Notes under the pieces: generated by a model | What the model was told of the DNA's origin: nothing | Databases searched by the model: none | What the model saw: only the letters and a program-made list of their open reading frames with translations | Shown: one piece after another, positions 206 to 45,535 of the stretch | How the letters are laid out: every line of letters starts with the position of its first letter | Position numbering within the stretch: position 1 is the stretch's first letter | Origin: Candidatus Poribacteria bacterium | GTDB taxonomy: Bacteria; Poribacteria; WGA-4E; WGA-3G | DNA: 64,000 bases | Reading direction: 5' to 3' | NCBI GenBank assembly: GCA_965198235.1 | Contig: OZ240248.1 | Location: 3,808,001 to 3,872,000, forward strand | Translations under genes and position numbers: made by a program

Positions 206-1330
206 CTATTCGGGTTCCTCGTCTTCATGTCTACCGAGCAGCTTATCCCAGAATCCGCCGTGTTCGCTTTGATGGGATTCTCCTCGAAGTTTCGCAAATT
301 CTTCTAACGTTTTTCGCTGTTCCGTGTTGAGATGCACTGGTGTCTCAATCTCTACCCTCACGACCAGATCCCCTGAATAGGAGCGTCTGTAATGTGGAAC
401 CCCTTTGTTAGGGATACGCAGTTGGGCACCGTACTGTGTACCCGGTGGAATATGCAATTCTTCATTTTCATCAATACTATCAACTTCAATTTTCCCACCG
501 AGGGTGGCTTGGACGAACGAGATTTTGGCGGATGTAATCAGGTCGTTTCGGTCACGTTGGAAACGTTCGTGCGGTTCGACATTGATAACGACAAACAAAT
601 CACCCGGAGGCGCGCCGTTTACACCCGCTTCGCCTTCACCTCGCAGTTGGTACTTGAAACCTGTATCAACGCCTTTGTCAATATTTAACGGAATGTCGCG
701 CGTGTTTCGAACAACGCCTCTTCCGCCACAGGGTTGGCAAGGTTCTGTAATAATTGCACCTTCCCCACGACATCTCGGACAAGTTCGCGACATTGTGAAA
801 AAACCTTGTGATTGGCTGATTTGACCTCTGCCGTAACATTGCGGACACGTTACGGGACTCGTTCCTTTTCTGGCACCACTGCCTTCACATGTGGGGCACG
901 ATTCAATCCGTGGCACTTGGATTGTGACCTCTTTGCCGTGAATAACGTCTTCCAATGTTACGTCGAGGTTATATTGTAAACTGCGTCCGCGTTTGGGTGT
1001 ACGCTGCGTACCACCGCTGAATCCACCGAAGAGGTCGCCAAAGACATCACCGAAAATGTCGTCAAGGTTCACACCAAAACCGCCGAAGTCGCTCCCCATG
1101 CCCTCCAGTCCTGCGTGCCCGAACCTATCATAACGGTCCCGTTTCTCAGGGTCTCGCAGCACTTCATAAGCCTCTGTGGCTTCTTTGAATTTGTCTTCGG
1201 CGACTTCATCGCCCGGGTTCTTATCCGGATGGAATTGTATGGCGAGTTTGCGATAAGCCTTCTTTATTTCGTCTTCGTCGGCATCACGATTGACGTTCAG
1301 AATCTCATAATAGTCGCGTTTTTGCGTCAT
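206..1330 (-). CDS. dnaJ: Chaperone DnaJ
   Basis: J-domain with HPD, G/F-rich region, four CxxCxGxG repeats. Confidence 0.98.
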
Positions 1331-1348
1331 ATATTGCCCTTCCTGAGT

Positions 1349-2200
1349 CTATTCAGTAGTGTCAGTAGCATCCGTATCATCCGATACGTCGTCTGATGCT
1401 TCTTCTTCGGCGGGTCCCTGTGAAACGACAACTTGCGAGGCGCGCAAGACACGGGCATGCAACATATAACCACGCCGAAATTCCTCAATAACTTTTCCCT
1501 CGGGTACATCATCCGATGCTGTGACAAGGAGTGCCTCGTGCTGATTTGGATCGAATGTTTCACCAACTGCTTCTATCGGTGTAAGTCCGTGGATTTTGAG
1601 TGCATCTAATAATTGTTTATGGACAAGTTGCACGCCTTCGTTGAAAGTCGTGAAAGTTGGCGAAGCCTCGCTCGTCTCGCCTTGTTCTGCTACGCTTTTG
1701 ATCGCGGCTTCCAGACTGTCCAAGACCGGGATCATCCCTTCTAAAATTCCCTCATTGGCGAATTTGAGCTGCCGTTGATAATCAGCTTGCAAGCGTTTTT
1801 TGGTATTCTCAGCTTCTGCTGCTGTGCGCAGGAGACGATCGCGTTCCGCCTTGTATTCCTCATGTACCTGTTGCACAGCAGTCTCTACCTCTTTTTCGAT
1901 TTCTGTGTGCAATAAGTCTTCACGTTCTGCTTCGTATTGCTCGCGCACCCTTTGTACGATCGCCTCTACTTCTTCTTTGACTTCCGAAGTGAGGTTGGCA
2001 GCCGTTTCTTCGACTGGCGCGATGCGCTCTTCTATCTCCTTTTTCACTTCCGATTTAACTGTATCAAGTGCCGTCTCCGCGATCTCTCGCATCCGTTCGA
2101 CAAGTGTTTTTTCTTTGCCGTCAGTGGTATCGTTATCAGCAGACGCTTCTGTTTCTGTTTCTTCTCCTGTTTCTATGTGTATCTCTTTAACTTCAGGCAT
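1349..2200 (-). CDS. grpE: Nucleotide exchange factor GrpE with extended N-terminal coiled coil
   Basis: AEAENTKKR, FDPNQHEA, GYMLHARVLRASQVVV motifs; directly upstream of dnaJ. Confidence 0.95.
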   Translation of the reverse strand: MPEVKEIHIETGEETETEASADNDTTDGKEKTLVERMREIAETALDTVKSEVKKEIEERIAPVEETAANLTSEVKEEVEAIVQRVREQYEAEREDLLHTEIEKEVETAVQQVHEEYKAERDRLLRTAAEAENTKKRLQADYQRQLKFANEGILEGMIPVLDSLEAAIKSVAEQGETSEASPTFTTFNEGVQLVHKQLLDALKIHGLTPIEAVGETFDPNQHEALLVTASDDVPEGKVIEEFRRGYMLHARVLRASQVVVSQGPAEEEASDDVSDDTDATDTTE

Positions 2201-2263
2201 AATGAAGTCCTTTTCTCTTTCTATAGGCGTGCTTGGGAATCACGCTTGTTTTAGTAGTCCATT

Positions 2264-3010
2264 TTAGCCGTGAACGGCGTTAGCGAATGCCCTCATCAGT
2301 TCGAGGGATCCGTTTTCTTCAAGAATGTTACCTGTGACGATGAAGTCCGCACCGGCTTCTACCTTTTTAGCGGCAATTTCTGGGGTGCGGATGCCTCCAC
2401 CGACGATTAGCGGGATGCTGATTTGATTTTTCACTGTTGTGATCATCTCTTCTGGGACAGAGTGCACTGCGCCACTTCCTGCCTCCAGATAAACCATCTG
2501 CATGCCGAGATACTCTGCAGCCAATGCATGCGGTCCCGCAATGTCGGGTTTATCGCGTGGGATGGGCATTGTGCCACTCATAAATTCAACAGCGGTTTTG
2601 TTACCGCCTTCAATCAGCATGTAGCCAGTTGGAATGGGTTTAAGCGCGTGACGTTGTATCCACGGTGCCGCTTTGACCTGTTCGCCAATGAGATAGTTCG
2701 GGTTGCGTCCACTTATGAGACTGATATACAGAATCGCATCAGCGTGGGGGGTGAGGTGCATCGAATCGCCCGGAAATAGCACCAGCGGGAGTTCTGTTTC
2801 CTGCTTAAGGGCTTTCGCGATGAGGTGCAAATCGTTCGTTAAAAAACTGCCACCGAGCAAAATTGCGTCTGCACCCGCCTGCTCTATTTCGCGCGCAAGC
2901 TTGATGCATTTTTCAATTTCACACTGCTCCGGATCAATTAGAACGAAATAACCAGCATGGTGCTTTTTCAATACCTCGTGAAAGTAGTTAAGAACCCAAT
3001 TTGATCTCAA
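2264..3010 (-). CDS. Geranylgeranylglyceryl phosphate synthase family (GGGPS/PcrB, group II-like)
   Basis: LIDPE, ADAILLGGS, LFPG, SGRNPNYLIGEQ, YLEAGSGA, VGGGIR, VTGN motifs; TTG start. Confidence 0.92.
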   Translation of the reverse strand: MRSNWVLNYFHEVLKKHHAGYFVLIDPEQCEIEKCIKLAREIEQAGADAILLGGSFLTNDLHLIAKALKQETELPLVLFPGDSMHLTPHADAILYISLISGRNPNYLIGEQVKAAPWIQRHALKPIPTGYMLIEGGNKTAVEFMSGTMPIPRDKPDIAGPHALAAEYLGMQMVYLEAGSGAVHSVPEEMITTVKNQISIPLIVGGGIRTPEIAAKKVEAGADFIVTGNILEENGSLELMRAFANAVHG

Positions 3011-3104
3011 ATGCGATTTTCCTTCTGTGCCTATGATAAATCTCGGTTTGAATGCTATGCCCTTTCTGATATTGCGGATTTATGGAGCGCCAGTTATTTT
3101 AAGA

Positions 3105-3133
3105 ATTCTATCATATTTATGGCGATTTGTCAA
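3105..3133 (-). promoter_or_regulatory. sigma70-type promoter for GGGPS-grpE-dnaJ-prmA
   Basis: Minus strand TTGACA-17-TAGAAT with TG extended -10; the -35 overlaps the upstream stop codon. Confidence 0.65.
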
Positions 3134-4350
3134 ATTCTGTGTTGTCGCGTGAGTTCATAAAGTAGAACACCCGCGGCGACTCCTACGTTGAGTGATGATT
3201 GCCCTGATGCCATAGGGATGCAAACTAATTCCGTGCAGCAGTCACGTGCATCAGCGGAGAGACCTGTATTCTCATTACCTACGACGATAGCCGTGGGTCG
3301 TGTAAATTCCATTTCATGCAGTTGGTTTTTGGCACTTGCTGTGGCACCCAGCACTTGCCAACCTGAGGCACGGAGTACATCAATCGCATCACCGATGTCT
3401 GGTATGTAGAATAAGGGTAAACGACCAACTGCCCCGCGGGAAGCACGGATGCAGTTTTTATGAAAAGGGCTTGCACCTCCACCGCTCAATAGGACGGCGG
3501 TGACTCCTGCCGCGTCTGCTGTCCGTAGCGTCATTCCAAGATTATCAGGATTTCCAATGTTCTCTGCGATGAGTAATATACATCTCGGACTAAAGTGAAA
3601 ATTGAGACTTCCGGACTCCGAAAGGAAGTTGGGGTAGCTGAGATGAACCGAAGCGATTATAGATGGCACGGGTCGCGTCGTCGTAATTGAACCCATCACG
3701 CCATCGTTCACTTGATAAGAGGATAGGTTTTCTGCCGCTGCACGTTTGAGCAAAGCTCTCCCTTCGAGTGTCGCCACAAATCCTGTCGTATGGAGAAGTA
3801 TTTCGATCGGAAGTCCGTCTTCCACTGCTCGTTCTACTATCAGATGTCCTTCGATGATAAATTGGGAGTGTTCAAGTTTCCCTTTCAAAGAGGCTAATTT
3901 GCGAATATGCGAAGCTATTGTGTCCTTCCGTTTTGAGACAGTTCGTTGTTCTGCGTTTGTGCTGCTGCCGCGTTTGATACCCCGATAGAAAGAACCCGTA
4001 CCTGTCTGAACCACGCTCCCCTCTAAAACGTCGTGGATTCTGTTTTCTATCCACTTTTCGCTAAAATGAAATAGACCTGTGTATCGCCTCGGAAAAGCGA
4101 TGAGTAGTTCTCTCAAGCTCCGTTCAGTTGTCGTTGTGAGATGAACTCGGTAGTTACTGTCAGATGTGTCCTCCGGTTCTAACAACATAACCCCATCAAG
4201 CTGCTGCCAGCCTGTAACAAATACCTCGTATGCAGGGTGCCATGTGCCCGTTTTGCAGAAGGTATAATACGCCTGCTTAAAACGGGAAACGGCATCTGCA
4301 TCCAAGCTCTCTTTCTCCAAGAAAGCAATAACCTTATCGTAGTTTATCAT
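3130..4350 (-). CDS. TrmH/SpoU-family RNA methyltransferase with about 135-aa extra N-terminal domain
   Basis: ENIGNPDNLGMTLRTADAAG, VVGNENTGLS, IPMASGQSSLNVGVAAG SPOUT motifs; ATG at 4350 overlaps the upstream TGA (ATGA). Confidence 0.88.
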   Translation of the reverse strand: MINYDKVIAFLEKESLDADAVSRFKQAYYTFCKTGTWHPAYEVFVTGWQQLDGVMLLEPEDTSDSNYRVHLTTTTERSLRELLIAFPRRYTGLFHFSEKWIENRIHDVLEGSVVQTGTGSFYRGIKRGSSTNAEQRTVSKRKDTIASHIRKLASLKGKLEHSQFIIEGHLIVERAVEDGLPIEILLHTTGFVATLEGRALLKRAAAENLSSYQVNDGVMGSITTTRPVPSIIASVHLSYPNFLSESGSLNFHFSPRCILLIAENIGNPDNLGMTLRTADAAGVTAVLLSGGGASPFHKNCIRASRGAVGRLPLFYIPDIGDAIDVLRASGWQVLGATASAKNQLHEMEFTRPTAIVVGNENTGLSADARDCCTELVCIPMASGQSSLNVGVAAGVLLYELTRQHRI

Positions 4351-5195
4351 AGAAACGTTCCGAGATAGATTGCGCCGAGTCCGACGAATATATCCCACTT
4401 CATCCAACGTTGAATGGACGCACAACTTTCTCTGGAGGCATCTTGACACAGACGAATTGCCAAACCGATTAGCACCACATCAACACCGATTAAGACGACA
4501 AGCAAGTAGTGCCATGAATACCAACCGAATAAATATGGAATGGGGCTAAACAGAATAACAGATGCCATGAAACCAATGGCTGTCCGGACTGCAATCCGTG
4601 GATTGAGCGTAGCAAGCGTTTTCGCGTTATTTTTCAGGTCCCCTTCTGTGTCCTCAAGGTCTTTGACGATTTCCCGCGCTGTCGTGAACAAAAAGGCGAA
4701 GATTGCTGGAATGAGTGTGCCTTGCACTGAATCTATCGCTACACCGCCAGCAATGAAGGTTAAACCCGTTAATCCGCTGACGACTAAATTGCCGACAAAA
4801 GGGGTGCGTTTCAACCAGAAAGCATAGCTTACAAGTGCAACGAACACAAAGATGGCAATACCTGTAGCATTTCTATTAATAAGAGCCCCCAACCAGATGC
4901 CGATTACGGTAAGTACTATCGCAAAAATTAGTGCATCGGTACGCCGAATGCGTCCAGAAGGTAGCGGGCGCCGCGGGCGATTGATTCGGTCAATGTTGTA
5001 ATCACAGTAATCGTTTATGGCGTTTCCTGCGGAAAGCAAGACAAGCGCGGAGACAGAAACCAACAGAAGTCGGATATTGGCAAGGTTTTCCATGTTCCCT
5101 TGGCTGGCAAACATCCCACCGAGCCATGCAGAGATGAAGGCGATAATTCCGTTAAGTGGACGCGCCAACTCAAGATACGCGATCAATGTCTTCAT
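4347..5195 (-). CDS. UbiA-family prenyltransferase, digeranylgeranylglyceryl phosphate synthase-like
   Basis: LARPLN start, NAINDYCDYNIDRINRPRRPLPSG, LKRTPFVGNLVVS and REIVKDLEDTEGD motifs; multiple TM helices. Confidence 0.85.
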   Translation of the reverse strand: MKTLIAYLELARPLNGIIAFISAWLGGMFASQGNMENLANIRLLLVSVSALVLLSAGNAINDYCDYNIDRINRPRRPLPSGRIRRTDALIFAIVLTVIGIWLGALINRNATGIAIFVFVALVSYAFWLKRTPFVGNLVVSGLTGLTFIAGGVAIDSVQGTLIPAIFAFLFTTAREIVKDLEDTEGDLKNNAKTLATLNPRIAVRTAIGFMASVILFSPIPYLFGWYSWHYLLVVLIGVDVVLIGLAIRLCQDASRESCASIQRWMKWDIFVGLGAIYLGTFL

Positions 5196-5492
5196 TGTTT
5201 GTGATCGGGACCGTTGAATGATAATCTGTTAGGGGTAACGGATACTGAAGCGCGTTCCATAATACCAGCGTACGGATTGCAATATTGCTTGGACCAGAGG
5301 AGGTACAGTGGAAAAAGAACGCCTGTGCAGAAACCGGATGCGTTGGCGTACAAGTCGAGATGGGTCTTCCCTTTAGATGAAAGAGGTAGGGGCATTCAGT
5401 TCTTCTGTAGGAGGGAACTCCGATTCCCGACACTATTGGAAACCATCGGCTATTTTACTGACGACTGACCGCTGACTGCTGATGGCTATTCT

Positions 5493-5623
5493 GTAGGAGG
5501 GGGGAAATCCGCAGGGAAATCCGCAGAAATACCCAAGCAAAAACACCCCTATCAAAAACCCCAAGCAATCCGCAGAAATACCCAAGCAAAAACACCCCTA
5601 TCAAAAACACTCCGATTTCCGAC
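5493..5623. repeat. GTAG-headed REP-like unit interrupted by a 42-bp direct repeat
   Basis: 5518-5559 equals 5567-5608; the flanks rebuild the intact unit GTAGGAGGGAACTCCGATTCCCGAC seen at 5407-5431. Confidence 0.8.
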
Positions 5624-5654
5624 TCCTCTCGCAAATCAAGGAAAATCGCGAAAA

Positions 5655-5774
5655 CTATGGTGAATCCTAAAAATGAATAGACAGTTGCTCAGTGAACCAA
5701 CCGCTCACCCCTGCTGGCGAGGATTGTATCCTCGCCTCCCCGCAATGTCCAAGTAATTGTGGGTTTTACCATAA
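5655..5774. repeat. MITE-like element with imperfect ~28-bp terminal inverted repeats enclosing a hairpin
   Basis: Right end TGTCCAAGTAATTGTGGGTTTTACCATAA is close to the reverse complement of 15406-15435; internal GGCGAGGATTGTATCCTCGCC hairpin. Confidence 0.6.
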
Positions 5775-5853
5775 ATGACCCTAAAAAGAGGCGCATAGAG
5801 TAGACAAATCCGAGTGTGACTGATAGTGAGACACCCCGTTTCCGGTAATATGC

Positions 5854-6906
5854 CTACGATTCATCCTTCAGTTCTTGAATTTTCGCTTCCAGTTCCGCAA
5901 CCCGTTTTTGGAGTTTAGTGAATTCAGGGAGTAGTTCCGGCAATTTCCGAGTCGCCGCGTGAATTCGTAATTCCTGTTTGTGAGGGCGTGCGGGGAATCC
6001 AGACAGATGACTGCCGGCAGGCATATCCTTTGTAACTGCGGATTTGGCGTAAACAACACTGTCTTCGCCGAGGGTCAGGTGTCCTGCTGCACCTCCATGC
6101 CCCGCAATGTTCACTCGATCACCGAGCGTCGCGCTGCCAGCGATACCGACTTGTGCGGCGAGGCAGCAATCTTCTCCGATGACAACGTTATGTGCGATTT
6201 GGACGAGATTATCCAATTTGGTGCCGCGTTTGATAAGCGTTTCAGAAAGTGTCGCTCTATCAATGGTAGTATTCGCTCCAATTTCAACATCGTCTTCAAT
6301 GACCACGGTTCCGATTTGGGGAATTTTGTGGTGTCGGTTGCTAACAGGTGCGAATCCGAAGCCGTCGCTGCCAATAACTGCACCGCAGTGGATGATCACC
6401 CGGTTGCCGATGGTTACCTCTTCTCGAATACTGACATGTGGATAGATAAGACCATCAGTGCCGATCTTGGTTCCTTCACCGATGTAGGCAAAGGGCTGAA
6501 TAACGGTATCATCTCCAATCTCAACGTTGTCAGCGATATAAGCAAACGCTTGGATTGAGACGCGCTCACCGAGTTTGACGTTCTTTCCTAAAATTGCAGT
6601 CTCATGAACCCCGGGAAGTGCGCGATGGTTTTTGTCCCACGCGAACATTTCTATAACTTTGACGAAAGCCCAGTAGGGGTTCTCAACACAGATAGTAGGC
6701 TTACCGTTACCGTTGACACCGCGGCCAATAATAATTGCGCCGGCTTGTGTTGTCGCTATGGCAGCGAGGTATTTGGGGTTAGCAACAAAGGTAATCTGAC
6801 TTGGGAGTGCCTCTTTGATTCCAGAAACTCCTGTAATTTCAATATCACCGTTCCCAGAAAGATCGCCGTCCAAGCGTTCACAAATTTCCTTAAGCTTCAT
6901 ACGCAT
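5854..6906 (-). CDS. lpxD: UDP-3-O-(3-hydroxyacyl)glucosamine N-acyltransferase
   Basis: Hexapeptide repeats, GSDGFGF, EIGANTTIDR, KLDNLVQIAHNV. Confidence 0.96.
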   Translation of the reverse strand: MRMKLKEICERLDGDLSGNGDIEITGVSGIKEALPSQITFVANPKYLAAIATTQAGAIIIGRGVNGNGKPTICVENPYWAFVKVIEMFAWDKNHRALPGVHETAILGKNVKLGERVSIQAFAYIADNVEIGDDTVIQPFAYIGEGTKIGTDGLIYPHVSIREEVTIGNRVIIHCGAVIGSDGFGFAPVSNRHHKIPQIGTVVIEDDVEIGANTTIDRATLSETLIKRGTKLDNLVQIAHNVVIGEDCCLAAQVGIAGSATLGDRVNIAGHGGAAGHLTLGEDSVVYAKSAVTKDMPAGSHLSGFPARPHKQELRIHAATRKLPELLPEFTKLQKRVAELEAKIQELKDES

Positions 6907-6991
6907 TTAGCCTTAATCCTTTCTCCGTAGATGTGAATGGTTATTCGGGGTTACAAACCCCTCCCACAACTGGAGTTTAGGCAGTGTAGCG

Positions 6992-7537
6992 TTATTCGGA
7001 GTTTTCGTTCATCAAGCCGATTAACTGTTGTGTCAAATCATATTCCTTTTTCACATAAAGTGTGATGAGTCGTTTTTCGAGGATGATGTCAAAATCTTCG
7101 GACTCACCGACTTTGACAATCAGTTCTTGAAGGCTGTTGTAAATCGGTTCCATTAACTCTTGCTCTTTTTCAAGCAGTGCTTGCTGGCCGATTTCGACAT
7201 CACGTTGGTATTCCTGCTGTTTGAGACGAATTTCGTTTTCCAAATCCGCGGTCTGTGCTTTTTCAACGAAGAGTTCTGTTTTCGCCTTCTTTTCCTGCAG
7301 TGCTCTGATATCGTCTCCTAACTGCTGCAACTTCGTTTTCAGGCGTTCGCTTGCCGCTTGGAGCAGTTCGGTTGCATCCGTCGCTTTTTGGGATCCTTCT
7401 AAAACCTGTTGTGTGTTTACGACACCGATTTTGAAAGATTCCTGCCCGATACTTCCCGTACTGAAACAGAAAACTGTGAGACCGATAATTAATAGAATTA
7501 GGTGTGCTTGGCAAGCACCCAACCGAAATGGTTTCAT
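6992..7537 (-). CDS. skp: OmpH/Skp periplasmic chaperone
   Basis: Signal peptide, KIGVVN, coiled coil, FDIILEK...YDLT; between bamA and lpxD. Confidence 0.9.
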   Translation of the reverse strand: MKPFRLGACQAHLILLIIGLTVFCFSTGSIGQESFKIGVVNTQQVLEGSQKATDATELLQAASERLKTKLQQLGDDIRALQEKKAKTELFVEKAQTADLENEIRLKQQEYQRDVEIGQQALLEKEQELMEPIYNSLQELIVKVGESEDFDIILEKRLITLYVKKEYDLTQQLIGLMNENSE

Positions 7538-7713
7538 AATTTGAATCCTTACTTTGTCATATAGATGGCAAGCAAATTTCAAGAGTTTGTTGTTACACGC
7601 TGACACAGCGAGCAAAAATAAAAATTATACTTGCCGTGAAAAAAGATCTGCACCTGGATGCTAATAATGTGTGCTGTTAGTACTTTCAATACCTGCCAGT
7701 GCAGGACGTTGTT

Positions 7714-10164
7714 TTAGAAGCCCGGACCAACCGTGAAATGGAATTTGCCAGCGGGTTCGCCGCTGACGCGATCCAAGCCATATCCCCAACCTAATCGAAC
7801 TAACATGCCGAGCATGGTAAACCGAGCCTCAAGACCGAGTCCTTTTTTCATGCTGATTTGGTTGAAGACGTTTGTAGTGCTTTCATCCCATACCTGCCCT
7901 ATGTCAAAAAACAGAGCTGCTGTGAGTTGCTGAGAAATTGGGACACGATACTCAAAGTTTGCAAAGAATACCTTATCACCACCGTACGGATTGATAAAAC
8001 CCGATTCATCTGGATCAGGATAGATTTCCCAATCTTCGTAGCCACGAATGCTATCTACACCACCGAGGAAAAAGCGTTCATAGAACAGGAAGTAAGCATC
8101 GGTGCTTTTACTTCGCATGATACCTGCGCGGCCATGCACGGCGATAACGTGGTTCCACCATCCACTGTAGAACCAACTCGCGTCCGCATAATATTTTTGG
8201 AACTTGTTGTCCGCTCCAAGAATACCACCGGAGTATTCATAAGAAAGTGTATGAAATGAACCCGCTGTTGGGTCAAACAGGGAGGTACGATAATCGCGGG
8301 TGTCCCTTCCGAGAGCGAACAGAATACTTCGTGTGGAGCGGTTGTATAACTCCCGATCAGGGTTGTGTGATTCTACATGTTCATTCCGAAAACGCACGGA
8401 CAAATCAATGTCATGTGCGATGGGTCTTCCGAGTGTTAGCGATGCCCCTCGTCTTGCCCAAACGTATCGGTCGTATAAGTAGTTACTCCCTACACGACGG
8501 TTATAGAGAGCACCGATCGTTCCGTAGTAGCGACGGAAGCGGCGGTTGTCGTAAATCCGGGCATTAAGCCGGGTGGGTGTTCCCAAAATCCAAGGTGTGC
8601 CAAAACTGAGTTCAGCTGTGTGGTGATCCCTGGTGCCTAATTCGCCTTTTAAGTGGACCCGATACGCTTGTCCACGAAAGTTATTTTGTCCGACCTCTGC
8701 GACACCGAAGATACCGCCTTCGCTGCCGTATCCACCTCCGAGACTCAGCATTCCTGTTCGCGGTGTTTCCGCGATATTAACTCTTAACTCCTTTCGATTC
8801 TCTTCACCGGTATCACTCGGAACAAAATCAACAGCACGAATAAAAGAACCCATCTGGAACAAACGTTGCCGCGCTTTGCGCAGGGATTTAACATCTAATA
8901 ACTCATCCGACTTGATGTCCAAAAAATCCAACTCACGTTTGACAACGTGTTCTTTCGTTTTTTCTAATCCGGTAATGATTACCTTGTCGATAATTATGAC
9001 ATCTCCTTCGTTGATTTTCAAGGTAATGTCAACCACGCCGTCCACTTCATTGAAAGTCGGAGTCGGTAGGACTTCTGAAAGTAGGTAACCTTTATCGAGA
9101 TAAGCTTGCTGTAACTTTGCGATTGATTCGTCGAAAGTAGCGCGGTTAAAGACCTCACCTTCTGCGGGGTCGAGCATCCCGCGTATCTTTTTTTCAGAAA
9201 AGAGGTTCTTAGCCCCGGCTTCCACTTCAAGTGTATAGGTTCCGATAATAAATTCGGGACCTTCGTCAACAGTAATGTCAAGCATTAAGCCGGTCTTGTC
9301 CTCTGTGAACCGTTTTTCGTAGCCGATGACCTTCACCTGTGCAAAGCCTCGATCCTGATAGTAATTTCGGATGTTCAGAGATAAATCTTCTTCCTCAAAC
9401 AGCATCTGATCGAAGGGTTTCCCGGTGCGGGTTTTGAGTTTTTTCTGGAGTGTATTCACGGAGATATGTGTGTTTCCAATAAAGTTGATTTCCTCAATCC
9501 GCACCCTCGGTCCTTCGTTTATCTCAAACGTGACTTGGACAGTATTCGCCTCTTCGTCTTTATCTCCAAGGTGGGTTTGGATGCTGGCAAGATAGTATCC
9601 CTTTTCGTGATAAAGTTTTTGTAGCGCTCGCTCGCTTTCCCACCGTCGCCGGTCGCCATAAATTTCTGAAGGACGAAGTATAATCTCATTCTTAACTTTG
9701 CCGGTACTCAAATTTTCGTTTCCAATAATGTTAATTCCAGAGATTTTTGGACTTTCGACGACCTTGTAAATAATTTCTAATCCACCGCCTTCAAACGGCT
9801 TCACGTCTACTGTGAGTTCGGAGAAGAAGCCTGTATCTTTGAAGAGGCTTTTCAGATCTTGCGTGAGGAGTTCTTCAGAGACTTCCTGCTCGACCTGCGT
9901 CTGAATAAGGGTACGCAGCATATCTTCGGAGGAAGTTTTCACACCTTCAAAAGAGATTTTCTTGACGAGGAGCCTCGAATCGCTGACGGGTTTGGTAGTG
10001 TTTGCTGTGGTGTCTTTATCAGACTCAGTTCCCACCTGCTGTTCGGTGGTCGTAGCTGCCTGGGGACCAAATACTGGTTTTTCGGTCTCTTCTGCAAAAG
10101 CGGCGATCGCTGCAAGTCCGATGAATAGGCTTATGAGAATAAAAACGTTTTTTGGCGCACTCAT
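7714..10164 (-). CDS. bamA: Outer membrane protein assembly factor BamA
   Basis: About five POTRA repeats, SIRGY motif, C-terminal Phe; AGGAGG RBS before ATG at 10164. Confidence 0.95.
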   Translation of the reverse strand: MSAPKNVFILISLFIGLAAIAAFAEETEKPVFGPQAATTTEQQVGTESDKDTTANTTKPVSDSRLLVKKISFEGVKTSSEDMLRTLIQTQVEQEVSEELLTQDLKSLFKDTGFFSELTVDVKPFEGGGLEIIYKVVESPKISGINIIGNENLSTGKVKNEIILRPSEIYGDRRRWESERALQKLYHEKGYYLASIQTHLGDKDEEANTVQVTFEINEGPRVRIEEINFIGNTHISVNTLQKKLKTRTGKPFDQMLFEEEDLSLNIRNYYQDRGFAQVKVIGYEKRFTEDKTGLMLDITVDEGPEFIIGTYTLEVEAGAKNLFSEKKIRGMLDPAEGEVFNRATFDESIAKLQQAYLDKGYLLSEVLPTPTFNEVDGVVDITLKINEGDVIIIDKVIITGLEKTKEHVVKRELDFLDIKSDELLDVKSLRKARQRLFQMGSFIRAVDFVPSDTGEENRKELRVNIAETPRTGMLSLGGGYGSEGGIFGVAEVGQNNFRGQAYRVHLKGELGTRDHHTAELSFGTPWILGTPTRLNARIYDNRRFRRYYGTIGALYNRRVGSNYLYDRYVWARRGASLTLGRPIAHDIDLSVRFRNEHVESHNPDRELYNRSTRSILFALGRDTRDYRTSLFDPTAGSFHTLSYEYSGGILGADNKFQKYYADASWFYSGWWNHVIAVHGRAGIMRSKSTDAYFLFYERFFLGGVDSIRGYEDWEIYPDPDESGFINPYGGDKVFFANFEYRVPISQQLTAALFFDIGQVWDESTTNVFNQISMKKGLGLEARFTMLGMLVRLGWGYGLDRVSGEPAGKFHFTVGPGF

Positions 10165-10227
10165 AATTAGATGTCCTCCTGTATGTTGTAGGCTTGCCAC
10201 GCGTTTGTGGCACGGTATATTATACCG

Positions 10228-11109
10228 TCATACTTCAGCGGTATATATTGGGGTGCCGCAGCTATGTGCGAACTGCCGAAATGCAGCAATTAATTTTTCT
10301 GTCACCTTTCCGGGCTGCCCGTTCCCGATGCCGCGTCGGTCTATTTTCACGACAGGTATAACCTCGGCGGCTGTGCCGGTTAGAAAACATTCATCCGCAA
10401 TGTAAAGGTCGTGTCGTGTAAAAACGCGCTCTTCAACTTGCATTCCAGCATCACGTGCAAGATCGATAACGCTGTTCCGGGTTACACCTTCCAGAATTCC
10501 CATGTGAACCGGTGGCGTGACAAGGACCTCATTCTTTACCCAGAAAATATTGTCACCGCTACATTCAACAACATAGCCTTCTGCATTAAGCATCAAGACC
10601 TCTTCTGCACCCGACTGTTTCCCTTCAATTTTTGCTAATATATTATTTAGATAGTTCAGCGACTTAATGCGTGGATTAATGGCTTCTGAATAATTCCTTC
10701 GAACAGAGGCAGTTACGATTTCCAATCCATCTTCATAGAATTTCTGTGGGTAGAGGGTAATTTTATCTGCAATAATAATGATGCTCGGCGTTGGACATTT
10801 ATCCGGATCGAGTCCGAGATCTCCTACGCCGCGAGTTACAACCAATCGAATATAGGCTTCCGTGAGATGATTGCGACGGAGTGTTTCCAGAACCGTTTCC
10901 TTCATCGTTTCAATAGGGATAGGGATCTGTAACATGATTGATTTCGCAGAATCGTAGAGTCGCTCAAGATGTTCATCGAGTTTAAAGACTCTACCGTTAT
11001 AGGAACGGATGCCTTCAAAAACACCGTCACCGTAGAGCAAACCGTGATCGAACACCGAGACCTTTGCTTCTGCTTTTGGTAAAAATTCTCCGTCGATGTA
11101 AATCAACAT
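10228..11109 (-). CDS. ilvE: Branched-chain amino acid aminotransferase
   Basis: DHGLLYGDGVFEG, KSLNY, LEGVTR, ECFLTGTAAEV. Confidence 0.95.
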   Translation of the reverse strand: MLIYIDGEFLPKAEAKVSVFDHGLLYGDGVFEGIRSYNGRVFKLDEHLERLYDSAKSIMLQIPIPIETMKETVLETLRRNHLTEAYIRLVVTRGVGDLGLDPDKCPTPSIIIIADKITLYPQKFYEDGLEIVTASVRRNYSEAINPRIKSLNYLNNILAKIEGKQSGAEEVLMLNAEGYVVECSGDNIFWVKNEVLVTPPVHMGILEGVTRNSVIDLARDAGMQVEERVFTRHDLYIADECFLTGTAAEVIPVVKIDRRGIGNGQPGKVTEKLIAAFRQFAHSCGTPIYTAEV

Positions 11110-15571: not shown

Positions 15572-16676
15572 TTATTTCTGCTGAGCCTTCATTTTGAGGT
15601 AGCTTTCGATGAAGGGGTCTAAAGCACCATCCAACACAGCGTTAACATTACCCGTTTCGACATTTGTGCGCAAATCCTTGACGCGTTGGTACGGGTGCAG
15701 GACGTACGACCGAATTTGGCTCCCAAAGTTAATTTCTAAGCGTTCGCTTCGCTGCTTTGAAAGTTCTGCCTCCCGTTCCGCACGATATTTCTCATGAAGA
15801 CGGGAACGGAGTAATTTCATAGCGATTTCTCGGTTCTTATGCTGCGAACGTTCATTCTGGCATTGGACGATAATTCCGGTGGGTTTGTGTGTAATCCGAA
15901 CTGCTGAATCTGTGACATTGACGTGCTGCCCACCCGCACCGCTCGCGCGATAGAAATCTATCCGTAAGTCTTCGGATTGAATATCCACTTCCACGGTGTC
16001 GTCGATTTCAGGGGTCACGTCGATAGCGGCGAAGGAGGTATGCCGCCGCTTGTTGAAATCGTAGGGGGATAACCGAACGAGCCTATGCACGCCCGCTTCT
16101 GCTTGAAGATAACCGTAAGCCGAAGCACCTGTAACGAGGATTGTTGTGCCTTTGATGCCGGCTTCGTCCCCTGCGGTGAGGTCTACGATTTCGGTCTGAT
16201 AGCCGCGCCGGTCGCACCAACGGAGGTACATACGCATCAACATCCCCGCCCAATCCTGTGCGTCAATCCCGCCAGCACCAGAGTGAATGTTGAGGATTGC
16301 GTTGTTCTCATCAAATTCACCCGTTAGCATTAAGCGGAGTTCCATCTGTTCGAGATCTCGTGTGACAGTGTCCAATCCGTCGGCAATCTCGTTTTGGAAA
16401 CTCCCATCGTTCTCTTCGGTCGCGAGTTCGAGCAGGGTTTGGATATCTTCAACTTTGAGAGCGAGGTCTTCGTACGCCCCAATTTCATCTCGGAGGATGG
16501 AGATTCGTTGGTTAACTTGTTGAACGCGTTGCGTATTGCTCCAAAAATCAGGAGCAATTGTCGCCTCTTCAAGTTCTGTTAATTCTTTTCGTTTTTCAGC
16601 CAGGTCAAAGATAACCTCTGAGTTCTTGGAGGCGGGTCTGCATCTCTTCAGCCTGGTTTTTTAAATCTACAAGCAT
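15572..16676 (-). CDS. prfB: Peptide chain release factor 2 with programmed +1 frameshift
   Basis: ATG 16676 gives MLVDLKNQAEEMQTRLQELRGYL then CTT TGA C; the +1 frame continues DLAEKRK into the 15572-16375 ORF; GGQ and SPY motifs. Confidence 0.96.
16604..16619 (-). promoter_or_regulatory. prfB frameshift cassette (internal SD plus CTTTGAC)
   Basis: Minus strand AGAGGT-TAT-CTTTGAC. Confidence 0.95.
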
Positions 16677-16704
16677 ATTGTTCCTCATGAATAGTCATGA
16701 ATAG

Positions 16705-18390
16705 TTAAGAATCTCTACGACGAACCCACATTATGATTTGACTGCCGAACCATCCAACGCAAATAAGGGCGCAAAGAATCGGAAACCAGTCGCCGTAGCG
16801 GGTATAGAGTGTCTGTTTGTGTTCCGTGGATGAGAGAAGTGGGACGGATGCGATGAGAATTTCCTGAGTGGTGTCAGGTGTAATCATGGGAGTCGTTATC
16901 CTACCAAACTTGTCTACGACGCACGTAAATCCACCATTTGCGCATCGGAACACAGCAATTCGGTTCTCAATCGCGCGGAAAGGTGCCATGGATAGATGCA
17001 GTTCGGGGAAAGCAGTCCCTTTGAACCAAGCATCGTTCGTGAAGATCCCCATCACTCTGGCACCCATTTTTACGGGGCTGCAAAATTCATCTGGAAACAC
17101 CGATTCAAAGCAAATCGAAGCACCGACCTCTATCTTCCGGGTGTTCGTCTTATTTTTAACGTCAAACACCGGTAAAAGGTTTACTGTTTTTCCATGAGCG
17201 AAAGGTTCAAACTGGATAAAATTGGGGATAAAATCCGGCAGGAGGTGTGCCAAAGGCACGTATTCACCAAACGGAACAAGGTGCATCTTCGCGTATGATC
17301 CATGTATCTTTCCATCTGAAGCTATCGAAAGGACGCGGTTGTATATTTCCGTATTTCCTTTTTCAGCATTTTTGGAAAATTGACCTATCGCTTTGTCTGT
17401 TTCTCCCTGGTTAGCCGTACCGAGGAGTATTGGAATCCCTATATCACGAAGCATCTGCGAGAATCTTCTGTAATATGTTGGCCACTCGCCTGTCAATGCC
17501 CTACTTCGTGTTGCAGTTTCGGGCCACACAATTAACTCAGGGCCTTCTCTGCTGGCTTTATGCGTCAACCCGATATAGCGTTGCAGAATTTTTGGAAACT
17601 GACGGAGATCCCACTTTTGAAGTTGCGAGATGTTGCCGGGGATGAGCGCAACTTTTAAGGTTTCGACGTTTGTTTGAGTCGTTGCGTTTGTACCCTGGTC
17701 TAAGGAGTCAGCGTTCTGTAGTTGGAAGATCCCGTAACCGAAACAGAAAATCGTCAGGGTCAGTGGCAGGAGGACGGCACGAATTTCCTGTCGCCATTGG
17801 TGGCGGTTACAAAGCAAGGTAGCGATGCCGGCATTGAAAAGCATGATGACGAAACTGATACCGTGTACGCCAACAAGCGAGGCTATCTGTATTCCCGGTA
17901 GATTGTTCCATTGCGAGTAACCGATACTTCCCCATGGAAACCCCGTTATCATCCAACTCCGCATCCACTCTAATGCTGTCCAGATACATGCAGCGGACAG
18001 AGAAAACAGGACGTTAGAACGCCTCGGCACAAACCTCATCAGCACTGCGAAAGCAGCGAAATAGAGTGCTGTGTATCCCACTAATAGTAAGTACCCCACC
18101 ATTGTAGCAAAGATATTCGCATACGGATAGAGAAGCAGGATGGCGGGAAGCAGACCTGCGAAAAATAGAAAACCCGTTAGATAGCCAATCCAAAATGCCT
18201 TTTTCCAATCTGTTGCTCGCGTTAAGGCAATGAAGAATGGCACCATCGCGACCCAAGCAAACGGAAAGAGGTTTAAATTTGGGAAACTGAGGAACAGCAA
18301 CAGTGCTGAGAGTACCGCAAGTATCCAATGGTGGTAGCGTTTCAAATTTTTAATTTTACCTTGCGGTTCGGTGAGGTGGGTTTGATACAT
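16705..18390 (-). CDS. lnt: Apolipoprotein N-acyltransferase
   Basis: TGFPW, WPE, KMHLVPFGEY, ICFES triad; the true start may be TTG at 18345. Confidence 0.95.
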   Translation of the reverse strand: MYQTHLTEPQGKIKNLKRYHHWILAVLSALLLFLSFPNLNLFPFAWVAMVPFFIALTRATDWKKAFWIGYLTGFLFFAGLLPAILLLYPYANIFATMVGYLLLVGYTALYFAAFAVLMRFVPRRSNVLFSLSAACIWTALEWMRSWMITGFPWGSIGYSQWNNLPGIQIASLVGVHGISFVIMLFNAGIATLLCNRHQWRQEIRAVLLPLTLTIFCFGYGIFQLQNADSLDQGTNATTQTNVETLKVALIPGNISQLQKWDLRQFPKILQRYIGLTHKASREGPELIVWPETATRSRALTGEWPTYYRRFSQMLRDIGIPILLGTANQGETDKAIGQFSKNAEKGNTEIYNRVLSIASDGKIHGSYAKMHLVPFGEYVPLAHLLPDFIPNFIQFEPFAHGKTVNLLPVFDVKNKTNTRKIEVGASICFESVFPDEFCSPVKMGARVMGIFTNDAWFKGTAFPELHLSMAPFRAIENRIAVFRCANGGFTCVVDKFGRITTPMITPDTTQEILIASVPLLSSTEHKQTLYTRYGDWFPILCALICVGWFGSQIIMWVRRRDS

Positions 18391-18626
18391 AGAGTACCTC
18401 TCCGTAGAGTCACCCTCCTAGCGCAAGCCTTTATAGGCTTGCGGGACAATGTTACGGGTTTACTGTTTAGTTTTATTTTTAATGCTGTAACCGAAAATGG
18501 TAGCCTGCATTCTCACTGCGAAGCAGGCGCAGGCGGATATAAGAAAAAACCTTCAAGGTGCATCTGGTGTTTTCATCGCTCAACCCAACCTACGCTTGGA
18601 TTTCTATTCTCAAACTCACGTTTACA

Positions 18627-20813
18627 CTAAAAAAGATCTGTCTTCAATAAGTGCGAGACTTTGATAAATACAATCCGCTCAGTGTCTCCTTCTACGGTAC
18701 GATTGTCGTTGTAGACGATAAAAAGATTGCTTTCAGGGCGGTATTCATAAGCGAAGAGCGCGAAGACCCGGCGTTCTTTTTCTAACGTGAATTCTGCACT
18801 GGCTCTCGCATACATACGCTGCGCAAACTGATAGTTCACGACAAAGCGACGCGTCCATTCGGAGAGTTCCCACGCTGTTGCATCGGGTTGTTTTTCATGG
18901 AGCCGCTGCAAGATGAACTCAAAACTGAGTTTGGCAGTCGGACGAATTGTGATTTCGGGACGGAGAAAGAAGGTGTCTTTATTATCACGGACACCGAAAC
19001 GTCCGGTGTTTCGGATCTGCACGTATTTGGGGGGGAACCATCCCATAAAGAACCGCGCGGTTCTATCTGTAAAGGGTTTGTTATCCTCATTAACGTGATA
19101 ATACCATTCGGGCCCGACGAGGAAAAAGAAGTCTTTAACGCTGAGGAGACTGCTAAAACTTGCCCTATGGTTTGTCAATTCACCTGCGTGGTTCGCGAGT
19201 CGTTCGTATTCGACTTCACCGCGAAGCCGTTCAACAGTGCCTTTGTACTGTTTATTATAGCGACTTCTGATCATTAATCCACGTCTACCCACGCGCGGGA
19301 CGAAGCCGGTTTCGGGGTTAAAGTGCTCCCCGATATCTGCGTAGATCGCATCTAACGAGAACACATTTGTCCGACGGGCAAGTTGGACAAAGACAAGGTC
19401 GTCCTCGGTGCTTTCTGCCATATCCAGACCCCCTGCTTTCCATTCTCTTGCGTATTCCAGATTAAGACTCGTAGCGGCGGGGAGTTGAATGCGTGCATCA
19501 AGTCCGCCTGCTCGATCGTAGATGGCACCGCGTTGTTTGTTAACGCCTAAAAACCCGACAGATGACGTTTTTCCAACTTCCCGTTGCAATCGCAAAACGG
19601 AGTAGTTATAGTTCGCGAGGGGCAATTCACCTATTGCTATTTCTCTATCAGGGTTTTCCGATCCCGCAACGGCTCCCACGAAAGCGAGATTGTACTTATT
19701 GAATTTCCCGATGACCTTTCCACCACCGAGCAGCGCTTCGACTTTTCGGCTGTAGAACAGGTCAAGCGGCATTTGAAAGAGTTCGTTTCCCTCGAGGAAA
19801 AACGGGCGTTTTTCAGGAAAACGGAGTGGGATATCGGTGAGATTCACGAGGTCGGGATCCGCCTCAATTTGTGCAAAATCTGGATTTATCGTCAGATCAA
19901 CGGTGAAGTCGGCGATCGGATACCGGATGTCTAACCCAAGGTCCGGTTTCACTGCGGCTGATGTTTCACCATCTCGCGGTTGCAGGACTTGTGGCTTTAG
20001 TGTGCCATACGGTTTGAACTTCACCGGTCGTTTGGTAACCAAACCTGAAATGGGAAGGTCTGTCAGATGTCCGAATTCTGAGACAGCGTACTGGCGTTCA
20101 CCCAAATCTGCCCAGGTCTGTTCTTCGGCGGGTGATTCGTCGTTTCGCCAAAAGTTGATACCCCAGGTTGCTGTTTCCATCCCTTTTGAAAATCGGAGTT
20201 CGGCAAACGGAATGGCGAATTCTGCTGTCCAGCTGTCTGTTCCTTTTGCGGCTTGACCTTGCCAGTCGCAATCCCATGATATGGCGGTGCCGATCATAGA
20301 CTGCCCCGTGCGCCTATTCGCGCCTTCGTTAATCAAGCGTCGATCGGTTTGTGTGCCGAGTGGGTTTAAGGCGAATGCATAACAGTTTCTGCCATCAAGG
20401 AAGGTATCGATTAAAACTTCAACGTGATCATCGGAAAAGAAGAAGGAGTCGCGCCGCGTTAGATTCGCTGCGAGCTTGTTCATGTCGGTCTTAAAGCATT
20501 CAAAGGCGACATAGAGGTTATTGGCATCGTAAGCGAGGTAGATAGTCGTTGGTTGTGTTGCTGGCTCACCCCGCTGTGGTTCAAATTGAATTAACTCACC
20601 GGTTTTGGCACTATTTTGCCAGCAGGTGTCGTCCAATTTCCCATCAATTTTTGGAGGTGTTTCTGTGCGGACTACTTTAATCGCGCGGTTCGTGAGAATT
20701 TCGGGGGCCTCGTCATTCGTGTCTGCAGGCAATACCTTAAGGCTCCACAAACAGAGGATGAGGTAGACTGCTAATATCAAATACGGGCTAAGCCGTGCCC
20801 TAATTGTTCGCAT
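18627..20813 (-). CDS. Secreted CBM9-like domain plus DUF5916-like outer membrane protein
   Basis: PKIDGKLDD, WTAEFAIPF, NPDFAQIEAD, FPEKRPFFLEG motifs. Confidence 0.75.
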   Translation of the reverse strand: MRTIRARLSPYLILAVYLILCLWSLKVLPADTNDEAPEILTNRAIKVVRTETPPKIDGKLDDTCWQNSAKTGELIQFEPQRGEPATQPTTIYLAYDANNLYVAFECFKTDMNKLAANLTRRDSFFFSDDHVEVLIDTFLDGRNCYAFALNPLGTQTDRRLINEGANRRTGQSMIGTAISWDCDWQGQAAKGTDSWTAEFAIPFAELRFSKGMETATWGINFWRNDESPAEEQTWADLGERQYAVSEFGHLTDLPISGLVTKRPVKFKPYGTLKPQVLQPRDGETSAAVKPDLGLDIRYPIADFTVDLTINPDFAQIEADPDLVNLTDIPLRFPEKRPFFLEGNELFQMPLDLFYSRKVEALLGGGKVIGKFNKYNLAFVGAVAGSENPDREIAIGELPLANYNYSVLRLQREVGKTSSVGFLGVNKQRGAIYDRAGGLDARIQLPAATSLNLEYAREWKAGGLDMAESTEDDLVFVQLARRTNVFSLDAIYADIGEHFNPETGFVPRVGRRGLMIRSRYNKQYKGTVERLRGEVEYERLANHAGELTNHRASFSSLLSVKDFFFLVGPEWYYHVNEDNKPFTDRTARFFMGWFPPKYVQIRNTGRFGVRDNKDTFFLRPEITIRPTAKLSFEFILQRLHEKQPDATAWELSEWTRRFVVNYQFAQRMYARASAEFTLEKERRVFALFAYEYRPESNLFIVYNDNRTVEGDTERIVFIKVSHLLKTDLF

Positions 20814-24657: not shown

Positions 24658-24806
24658 GTCAGCAATTGGTTATCGGTTATCAGTTATCGGTTAAGAGGTT
24701 TTCGTCAGATCCAAAGTGGTAGCCTGCAACAACGGCGCAGGCGTGTTTAAGAGAGGCACACCAAAGACAGAACCCACGTTATTTCTCCGCAAGGTAAAAT
24801 TAAAAA

Positions 24807-26744: not shown

Positions 26745-27335
26745 ATGACAACACGGGCAGTTCAAACATATCTCACGCCAGAGGAGTACATCACTTTAGA
26801 ACGCAAAGCGATACCTGATGCTGAAACAGTCAGAAGCGAATACATCAATGGAGAGATTATCAAAATGCCCGGAGCCAGTTTCGCACATAATTTGATGACT
26901 AACAATATCTCTGGTGAACTCCGCGCTCGCTTGAAGGGCAGTGAGTGTGCTGTTTTCGCGAATGACATGCGTATCAGCATTCCCACAGCAAAATCCTATT
27001 TTTATCCTGATGTTGGCGTTGTCTGTGAGGAACCCCGTTTTGAAGACGATGTCTTTGACACGCTTCTGAACCCGATTGTCATCGTAGAGGTGCTTTCACC
27101 TTCAACCGAAGCGTATGACAGAGGTGAAAAATTCGCCCACTATCGCCAAGTCACATCGTTGCAGGAATACGTCCTTGTGGCCCAAGACCAGATTCGTGTT
27201 GAACACTACCGCCGTCAAGAAAGGCAGTGGATTTTTACCGATTTTGAAAAACATGATGCGATTCTGTTGCTTCCTTCCATCCAGTGCGAATTACCCTTGC
27301 GGGAAATCTACGAACGCGTTACATTTTCTGATTAG
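26745..27335 (+). CDS. Uma2-family endonuclease-fold protein
   Basis: EYINGEI, YPDVGV, IVEVLSPSTEAYDRGEKFAHY. Confidence 0.92.
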   Translation: MTTRAVQTYLTPEEYITLERKAIPDAETVRSEYINGEIIKMPGASFAHNLMTNNISGELRARLKGSECAVFANDMRISIPTAKSYFYPDVGVVCEEPRFEDDVFDTLLNPIVIVEVLSPSTEAYDRGEKFAHYRQVTSLQEYVLVAQDQIRVEHYRRQERQWIFTDFEKHDAILLLPSIQCELPLREIYERVTFSD

Positions 27336-29088: not shown

Positions 29089-29101
29089 AGGGAATTTTTA
29101 T

Positions 29102-45529: not shown

Positions 45530-45535
45530 CAGCGT

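Follow-up and report, generated by a model that had tools for sequence, protein, structure and literature searches.

Does a bacterium that carries the genes for lipid A also make isoprenoid diether lipids of the archaeal type? Bacteria with both archaeal ether-bond enzymes play a central part in the 'lipid divide' debate, in which it is asked whether mixed archaeal-bacterial membranes can and do exist, and the case for such membranes has so far rested on Cloacimonetes and other bacteria of the Fibrobacteres-Chlorobi-Bacteroidetes (FCB) group. The question is raised here by a stretch of 64,000 nucleotides (nt) of Candidatus Poribacteria contig OZ240248.1, hereafter the window. It holds a gene for a geranylgeranylglyceryl phosphate (GGGP) synthase (GGGPS; 2264-3010, minus strand, 248 amino acids (aa), TTG start) and, 1336 nt away on the same strand, a gene for a UbiA superfamily prenyltransferase of the digeranylgeranylglyceryl phosphate (DGGGP) synthase (DGGGPS) type (4347-5195, minus strand, 282 aa). 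Both open reading frames (ORFs) are indeed present where a first-pass annotation, made from the letters of the window, had placed them, co-oriented and with a single ORF for a SpoU/SPOUT methyltransferase between them.

By sequence comparison the identification of the GGGPS gene is firm and that of the UbiA gene as DGGGPS-type is good. The best-supported reading, which by analogy with known systems we hold to be probable, is that Poribacteria make isoprenoid diether lipids by means of the GGGPS and the DGGGPS-type UbiA protein. Part of this is already known: public annotation names both genes, and bacterial GGGPS/DGGGPS pairs have been published from Cloacimonetes and the FCB group. What the present analysis adds is the phylum-wide, near-fixed co-localisation of the two genes outside Cloacimonetes and the unusual placement of the GGGPS gene at the head of grpE-dnaJ.

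The GGGP synthase

The GGGPS matches the Pfam family PcrB (PF01884) with 164.2 bits (cut-off 23.9), the NCBIfam GGGP equivalog TIGR01769, 'phosphoglycerol geranylgeranyltransferase', with 226.7 bits (cut-off 161.55) and NF003198 with 290.6 bits (cut-off 247). In a search of the PDB, the group II structures 4MM1 (M. thermautotrophicus) and 4JEJ (Flavobacterium johnsoniae) were matched with 199.2 and 181.5 bits, and 6JO3 and 6NKE with 163.4 and 154.5 bits, versus 33.9 bits for group I 2F6U and 32.0 bits for PcrB 3VZX. These scores bear out the earlier assignment to group II. The motifs MVYLEAGSGA, VGGGIR, IVTGN and TAVEFMSG are all found in the translation. A PcrB-type heptaprenyl enzyme was considered and rejected, since the protein reaches only 36.5 bits on the heptaprenyl-type model NF003197 (cut-off 260) and 32 bits against 3VZX.

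Residues Y130, Y174 and E176 (in YLEAGSGA), G204-G206 and T226 (in VTGN) are identical in the aligned 4MM1 and invariant across 11 Poribacteria sequences. The window GGGPS and 4MM1 share the Tyr of GY(M/L), the GGGI loop and the Thr of VTG, T226 standing where group I has Asn. With the group II enzymes 4MM1, a hexamer, and 4JEJ, a dimer, the protein has in common the TIM-barrel PcrB family, the motifs YLEAGSGA, GGGI and VTG, and a Thr where group I carries Asn. The anchor and limiter positions differ from 4MM1. F143 (in AVEFMS) aligns with the anchor W141, so that the Phe stands at the aromatic-anchor position as the first-pass annotation had stated, and with an Ala in the variant chain 5NF1, which we take to be an anchor mutant. 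L86 stands opposite V86, for which a role in limiting chain length has been proposed. Eleven Poribacteria homologues with identities of 65-100% all have both F143 and L86. The accessible text of a review (PMC9385802) gives the roles of the catalytic Tyr and Glu and of the phosphate-binding residues, with a Tyr/Glu numbering that differs from counting along the PDB chain, and associates an aromatic anchor residue in group II GGGPS with hexamers.

The UbiA family protein

The UbiA protein matches Pfam UbiA (PF01040) with 151 bits (cut-off 34.2). Its three best NCBIfam models are all of DGGGPS type (NF009523, 230.2 bits; NF009521, 211.5; NF009522, 174.9), versus 75.5 bits for ChlG, 66.6 for BchG, 61.8 for CyoE (heme O synthase), 48.1 for UbiA (4-hydroxybenzoate prenyltransferase) and 43.8 for MqnP. 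The best sequence match in the PDB is the M. jannaschii DGGGPS 6M31 (128.6 bits, E 2.4e-36, residues 2-279 versus 6-279), followed by chlorophyll synthase (29.7 bits) and decaprenyl-phosphate phosphoribosyltransferase (24.8 bits). The AlphaFold2 model, built from a 42-sequence alignment, is predicted to be all-helical, with a predicted local distance difference test (pLDDT) score of 96.5 and a predicted template modelling (pTM) score of 0.92. With this model Foldseek returned 7BPU/6M31 on top (E ~1e-14, 32% identity, TM 0.77) and the Aeropyrum UbiA protein (ApUbiA) behind them (E 2e-7, 18% identity); since TM-scores are alike across the UbiA superfamily, the predicted fold alone cannot tell subfamilies apart.

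The motifs that had been quoted for this protein, NDYCDYNIDRINRPRRPLPSG and REIVKDLEDTEGD, are found in its translation. As defined in the accessible text of PMC9385802, motif 1 is D-x3-D with a preceding Asn, motif 2 is Y..K and motif 3 is D-x2-D-x3-D. N61, D65, D69, Y124, K129, D179, D182 and D186 correspond to N62, D66, D70, Y125, K130, D180, D183 and D187 of the M. jannaschii enzyme (MjDGGGPS). Kept among these are all five Asp positions at which mutations cripple MjDGGGPS, along with the equivalents of N62, Y125 and K130. The resemblance to MjDGGGPS (6M31/7BPU) extends to length (283 versus 282 aa) and an end-to-end alignment that keeps motifs 1-3 and N62. The two differ in that identity is about 32%, the Poribacteria host is bacterial, and its protein lies under the NCBIfam DGGGPS cut-offs and is known by its sequence.

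Close relatives of both proteins come from the same phylum. Among the best 120 matches per protein, identity is 83-95% for UbiA and 65-97% for GGGPS, and the few that carry an organism name are Candidatus Poribacteria bacterium. Product names on these Poribacteria matches are 'digeranylgeranylglyceryl phosphate synthase', 'geranylgeranylglycerol-phosphate geranylgeranyltransferase', 'UbiA family prenyltransferase' and 'geranylgeranylglyceryl/heptaprenylglyceryl phosphate synthase'. In a library clustered at 50% identity, the next UbiA clusters share 59, 49, 45 and 44% identity and those after them 34-42%; outside Poribacteria, relatives with names come only from candidate division KSB1, at 42% identity and annotated as DGGGPS. 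All 30 of the nearest full-length cluster representatives match DGGGPS-type models best.

A phylogeny of 52 rows was built with IQ-TREE in quick mode under LG+C20. The nine Poribacteria UbiA proteins form one clade with a Shimodaira-Hasegawa-like approximate likelihood ratio test (SH-aLRT) support of 99, and their nearest neighbours are two cluster representatives (P0241 and P0443; SH-aLRT 98). The clade lies inside the DGGGPS-like set, together with two KSB1 proteins and the representatives that reach or approach the NCBIfam DGGGPS cut-offs; in this tree, which is without chlorophyll synthase or named archaeal sequences, E. coli UbiA, CyoE and MenA fall outside on branches of 4.5-5.7 changes per site. 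The NCBIfam, PDB and Foldseek rankings support the view that this is a UbiA protein of DGGGPS type and not a quinone, chlorophyll or heme prenyltransferase, and the tree agrees as far as E. coli UbiA, MenA and CyoE are concerned.

Conservation and selection across Poribacteria

Genome contigs were searched with a profile of the GGGPS alignment, and the best 80 of 213 relatives were then compared with the window proteins by tblastn. The record titles of 77 of these loci name Poribacteria and those of 3 'uncultured bacterium'; all were treated as Poribacteria species genomes. The order bamA-skp-lpxD-UbiA-SPOUT methylase-GGGPS-grpE-dnaJ, all on the same strand, is found in 66 of the 80. In 68 loci UbiA is found upstream of GGGPS and co-oriented with it, at a distance of 224-5882 nt (median 1342), with the methylase between them in 66 of these and lacking there in two (L011, L039). 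In 2 of the 80 loci the contig is too short upstream of GGGPS to judge. Downstream, grpE follows GGGPS in 79/80 loci and dnaJ in 77/80, the absences being at contig ends. On a GGGPS tree of 79 loci and the window (L062 was left out, its match being incomplete) adjacency of UbiA and GGGPS is found on both sides of the midpoint. We infer that this adjacency is ancestral in the sampled Poribacteria and was broken several times.

Neither gene contains internal stops, in 79 of 79 full-length GGGPS matches and 68 of 68 UbiA matches. Ratios of nonsynonymous to synonymous change (dN/dS) were calculated by the method of Nei and Gojobori (NG86) for each locus versus the window, using pairs with dS below 2.5. 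They are 0.043 for GGGPS (45 pairs) and 0.076 for UbiA (55 pairs), beside 0.038 for lpxD (52 pairs), 0.084 for dnaJ (48 pairs), 0.088 for grpE (40 pairs) and 0.128 for the SPOUT methylase (31 pairs); as dS is high (about 1-1.5) these ratios are rough, and both lipid genes are still clearly constrained. The pair is thus under purifying selection in about 80 species genomes of Poribacteria. Among the six genes the methylase shows the weakest constraint, with a stop in 4 of its 67 matches. The idea that either lipid gene is a decaying relic was rejected in view of the lack of internal stops and the low dN/dS.

Organization of the locus

The two genes belong to a run of nine, all on the minus strand (206-11109). 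In the order of transcription these are an ilvE-like aminotransferase gene, bamA (7714-10200, five Pfam POTRA domains and Omp85), skp/ompH (6992-7615, Pfam OmpH), lpxD (5854-6906, Pfam LpxD and hexapeptide repeats), the UbiA family gene, the methyltransferase gene (3130-4350, SpoU/TrmH/RlmB-like), the PcrB/GGGPS family gene, grpE (1349-2200, Pfam GrpE domain) and dnaJ (206-1330, Pfam DnaJ domains). The position of the pair downstream of bamA-skp-lpxD, which the first-pass annotation had pointed out, is confirmed by these Pfam identifications, and the same genes mark the host as a diderm that has genes for lipid A and outer-membrane biogenesis. It had also been guessed to be one of the Poribacteria, correctly so: the named close relatives are Candidatus Poribacteria, and the first 13 kb of the window are 89-92% identical in nucleotides to loci of Poribacteria metagenome-assembled genomes (MAGs). 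In the NCBI taxonomy Poribacteria stand among the candidate phyla and are assigned to no superphylum.

The methyltransferase has a Pfam SpoU_methylase domain (122.3 bits) and an MRM3-like substrate-binding domain (30.5 bits), and scores 115.7 bits on the RlmB model TIGR00186, under the cut-off of 160. Its ATG at 4350 overlaps the TGA stop of UbiA (ctATGAtaa), so it most likely starts there and has 406 aa, not the 439 aa of the longest ORF. The identical overlap is kept in 37 loci according to tblastn coordinates, and the methylase is most likely translationally coupled to UbiA. For its N-terminal ~175 aa (window 3826-4350) no Pfam family was found at E <= 5, the only match being a chance-level one of 14.7 bits, and a search of the ESM Atlas gave scores of 0.83 or less and no convincing neighbour.

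The gap of 119 nt upstream of GGGPS holds a predicted sigma-70-like promoter (3133-3105, minus strand), TTGACA-17-TAGAAT with an upstream TG, which has 11 of 12 consensus matches and is the best such site in a scan of 11.4 kb. Across that scan promoter-like sites are not more frequent than in shuffled sequence (15 versus 13.3 +/- 3.5), and the consensus is that of sigma-70, which may not reflect the rules of Poribacteria themselves. A site of the form TTGA[CA][AT]-N16-18-TA.AAT occurs at most 160 nt upstream of GGGPS in 73 of the 80 loci, including loci without UbiA nearby, in a flanking spacer that varies. The 63 nt between GGGPS and grpE show neither a terminator-like site nor an unusual RNA fold (z = 0.09), and upstream of GGGPS no heat-shock operator of the CIRCE (controlling inverted repeat of chaperone expression) type was seen by eye. 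It is probable from this layout that grpE and dnaJ are co-transcribed with GGGPS. The block would then consist of a UbiA-methylase unit, into which transcription runs on from lpxD in the case of a gap of only 12 nt, and a GGGPS-grpE-dnaJ unit with a promoter of its own.

The spacer between lpxD and UbiA is variable, measuring 12-1993 nt across 66 loci and 658 nt in the window (5196-5853). There it contains a perfect direct repeat of 42 nt in two copies, 5518-5559 and 5567-5608, 49 nt apart; no further copy is present in the window and none in the 80 Poribacteria loci. Rfam, at gathering thresholds, and ARAGORN gave no RNA family or tRNA match in the window.

A possible route to diether lipids and its alternatives

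On the model of archaea and of the Cloacimonetes pair that has been tested, the soluble GGGPS would join geranylgeranyl diphosphate and glycerol phosphate, with a preference for glycerol-1-phosphate (G1P), and so form the first ether bond. The membrane-embedded UbiA enzyme would add a second geranylgeranyl chain at C-2 to yield DGGGP, to which bacterial enzymes of the CDP-diglyceride type may add a head group. The outcome would be isoprenoid diether lipids beside ordinary ester lipids and lipid A. What is said of substrates and stereochemistry, of how much product would form and of what it would do in the membrane is inferred.

The closest parallel is the Cloacimonetes pair, for which we draw on the accessible text of Villanueva et al. 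2021 (PMC7852524). It too consists of a group II-type GGGPS and a DGGGPS-type UbiA protein encoded close together in genomes with ester-lipid and envelope genes, and an isoprenoid diether phospholipid in a mixed membrane has been proposed for it. When co-expressed in E. coli, the Cloacimonetes GGGPS and DGGGPS yielded unsaturated phosphatidylglycerol-archaeol (PG-archaeol). Like the Poribacteria window, Cloacimonetes genomes have no recognisable G1P dehydrogenase (G1PDH). The two systems differ in phylum, and Poribacteria alone have a SPOUT methylase between the genes and a GGGPS that heads grpE-dnaJ. Unlike the Cloacimonetes pair, that of Poribacteria has no polyprenyl synthase nearby and is known from its genes, the Cloacimonetes enzymes having been expressed in E. 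coli. The same text describes GGGPS/DGGGPS pairs in FCB-group bacteria and 'related candidate phyla', in agreement with the first-pass annotation on co-localised pairs, and presents bacterial co-localisation as seemingly restricted to Cloacimonetes.

'Poribacteria' does not occur in the main text of Villanueva et al. 2021, and Coleman et al. 2019 (PMC6431249) do not mention the phylum in the main text and one supplement. A literature search, to which subscription journals and most supplements were outside reach, found no paper that ties GGGPS/DGGGPS genes to Poribacteria. In their accessible parts PMC2478661, PMC5059525 and PMC10033605 mention both Poribacteria and ether-lipid terms, each in a context unrelated to the other, and a 2026 preprint on the ether lipids of sponge symbionts covers the elb, agps and mss genes of Poribacteria. 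Homologues of the tetraether synthase Tes are reported from 10 of 29 Black Sea Poribacteria MAGs in the part of PMC11868695 that was available.

Several observations weigh against a diether pathway in Poribacteria and are taken up here with the explanations that they would favour. As regards the second enzyme, the scores of 230.2, 211.5 and 174.9 bits are below the curated DGGGPS equivalog cut-offs of 269, 296 and 353. Motifs 1-3 recur throughout the UbiA superfamily; they leave the acceptor undefined and are necessary for a DGGGPS assignment, not specific to it. The UbiA tree includes no named archaeal DGGGPS, chlorophyll synthase or Cloacimonetes sequence. Furthermore, the whole block from ilvE to dnaJ is syntenic, and the kept adjacency of the pair is therefore not independent evidence of functional coupling. 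The UbiA protein could accordingly be thought to prenylate an acceptor other than GGGP, be it an aromatic compound or another lipid head, with its proximity to GGGPS a by-product of a conserved housekeeping block. Such a function would agree with scores under every equivalog cut-off, with the annotation of the close relative P0098 by the Prokaryotic Genome Annotation Pipeline (PGAP) as merely 'UbiA family prenyltransferase', with the synteny of the entire 12 kb and with the apparent coupling of UbiA to the SPOUT methylase, not to GGGPS. We nevertheless rate it as distinctly improbable. The DGGGPS models and structure score three to five times above any other subfamily, the 30 nearest full-length representatives agree on DGGGPS-type models, and the named relatives from outside the phylum are KSB1 proteins annotated as DGGGPS. 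By our estimate, the chance that two genes of the same pathway lie 1.3 kb apart in a genome of ~5.5 Mb is about 5e-4. The equivalog cut-offs, for their part, are reached by none of the 30 nearest full-length representatives of the 50% clusters and by one of 113 further ones (P0275), with 6 more near; the models are thus narrow, and failing them says little about function.

A second group of observations concerns the link between the two genes. Ten of the 80 loci have no UbiA despite at least 5 kb of sequence upstream of GGGPS, and on the GGGPS tree the state 'no UbiA nearby' requires 6 changes, at least 4 of them forced by well-supported branches. GGGPS also appears to have its own promoter, separate from UbiA. 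It is therefore conceivable that GGGPS is active and that its product is a minor or specialised lipid, such as a monoether derivative of GGGP or an anchor or carrier lipid, with no real mixed membrane. This would fit the expression of GGGPS from a putative promoter of its own with chaperone genes, not lipid genes, its retention without a nearby UbiA in the ten loci, and the finding of no dedicated G1PDH, CarS or reductase in the window. There is a bacterial model for it in Bacillales PcrB (group Ib), which shares with the window GGGPS a homologous fold and a G1P-dependent ether bond; according to the accessible text of PMC9179154, the homologous product in Bacillales is dephosphorylated and acetylated, and not put into phospholipid. 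Those systems are without a DGGGPS partner, whereas Poribacteria have a DGGGPS-type UbiA protein, whose gene is intact in 68 of 68 loci and evolves under purifying selection, which argues that the second prenylation step matters. Moreover, the Cloacimonetes pair needed neither CarS nor an added reductase to give a complete phospholipid in E. coli (accessible text of PMC7852524). On balance we rate the reading of a minor or specialised lipid as rather unlikely.

Thirdly, the supply of G1P and the later steps have to be considered. Of the 48 non-overlapping ORFs of at least 90 aa in the window, 47 were scanned against Pfam (18328-18630, plus strand, 100 aa, was omitted), and no family of G1PDH, polyprenyl diphosphate synthase, CarS or geranylgeranyl reductase was found among them, consistent with the first-pass annotation, which had reported no G1PDH, CarS or reductase in the window. 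To our knowledge no physiological role has yet been assigned to the GGGPS of Bacteroidetes, a group II enzyme as well. The table of a 2016 survey, in the part of PMC5059525 that was available, gives Poribacteria GpsA and GlpK and lists no EgsA/AraM. For bacteria without G1PDH, Coleman et al. (PMC6431249) have raised the possibility of a reverse reaction, and the Poribacteria enzymes might by the same token salvage or break down the lipids of co-resident archaea through reverse or remodelling reactions in place of de novo synthesis. Thaumarchaeota are abundant in sponges (PMC9289680, accessible text), and one locus (L079) has a gene of the PhyH family (phytanoyl-CoA dioxygenase-like) 1.7 kb upstream of GGGPS. 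We consider salvage highly improbable: no precedent is known for a reverse action of these prenyltransferases, the PhyH neighbour occurs in one of four rearranged loci examined, and biosynthesis is a better fit for the housekeeping-gene setting and the strong, constitutive-type predicted promoter.

The synthesis of isoprenoid diether lipids by GGGPS and the DGGGPS-type UbiA enzyme therefore stays the preferred reading. The earlier interpretation of the locus is supported, in that all parts of it that are testable in silico held, the lipid product itself remaining a proposal. A broader version, according to which an ancestral, fixed DGGGPS-SPOUT-GGGPS block between bamA-skp-lpxD and grpE-dnaJ, with GGGPS driven by a strong and conserved promoter ahead of the chaperone genes, lets lipopolysaccharide-bearing Poribacteria make archaeal-type ether lipids constitutively or under stress, we regard as doubtful.

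Other features of the window and related loci

In four of the ten loci without UbiA the ORFs upstream of GGGPS encode WD40 proteins, transposases, restriction-modification genes, phosphoenolpyruvate carboxykinase (PEPCK) and others, which indicates that these regions are rearranged. In L079 (7471-8331, plus strand) genes of the PhyH family and for an FGGY sugar kinase lie just upstream of GGGPS, which may be a coincidence. Large WD40 proteins are encoded in L058 (654-1706, 5154-7100 and 7216-9120) and an ankyrin-repeat protein in the window (20992-22989, minus strand). Eukaryote-like repeat proteins of this kind are typical of sponge symbionts.

At 16600-16680 (minus strand), upstream of ORF 15572-16375, the prfB gene for release factor 2 (RF-2) is split into two frames at CTT TGA C, preceded by AGAGGT. 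This is the well known programmed +1 frameshift of prfB, as a result of which the listed ORF of 267 aa is without the N-terminal part. On the plus strand, 23533-25634 encodes a protein with a weak match to PorV of type IX secretion (28.8 bits against a cut-off of 27) and, after it, a DUF5683 protein. Type IX secretion characterises the FCB group, and this marginal match would agree with the affinity of the UbiA protein to KSB1/FCB. Finally, a patch of mobile or defence-type genes (26745-27335, 29021-30238 and 44032-46113) comprises a Uma2 endonuclease, two HSDR_N-domain proteins, a Fic-like/PadR protein and an IS200-type transposase.

Implications

The weight of these findings is limited: both genes carry names in public annotation already, and the lipid is predicted from them. 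Nonetheless, Poribacteria, a dominant and uncultivated phylum of sponge symbionts, widen the set of candidate mixed-membrane bacteria, and the 68 of 80 loci with the pair qualify the published view that confines bacterial co-localisation to Cloacimonetes. The GGGPS/UbiA pair moreover keeps a constant position amid essential genes for the envelope and for chaperones. The finding also bears on the isoprenoid ether lipids of sponges, which are usually credited to archaeal symbionts. If the broader version regarded above as doubtful were true, some Poribacteria could, together with Tes homologues, be a source of archaeol- or GDGT-like (glycerol dialkyl glycerol tetraether) lipids in sponges and the water column. 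Archaeal lipid biomarkers would then be blurred, and the 'mixed membrane' debate would gain a second case, from outside the FCB group.

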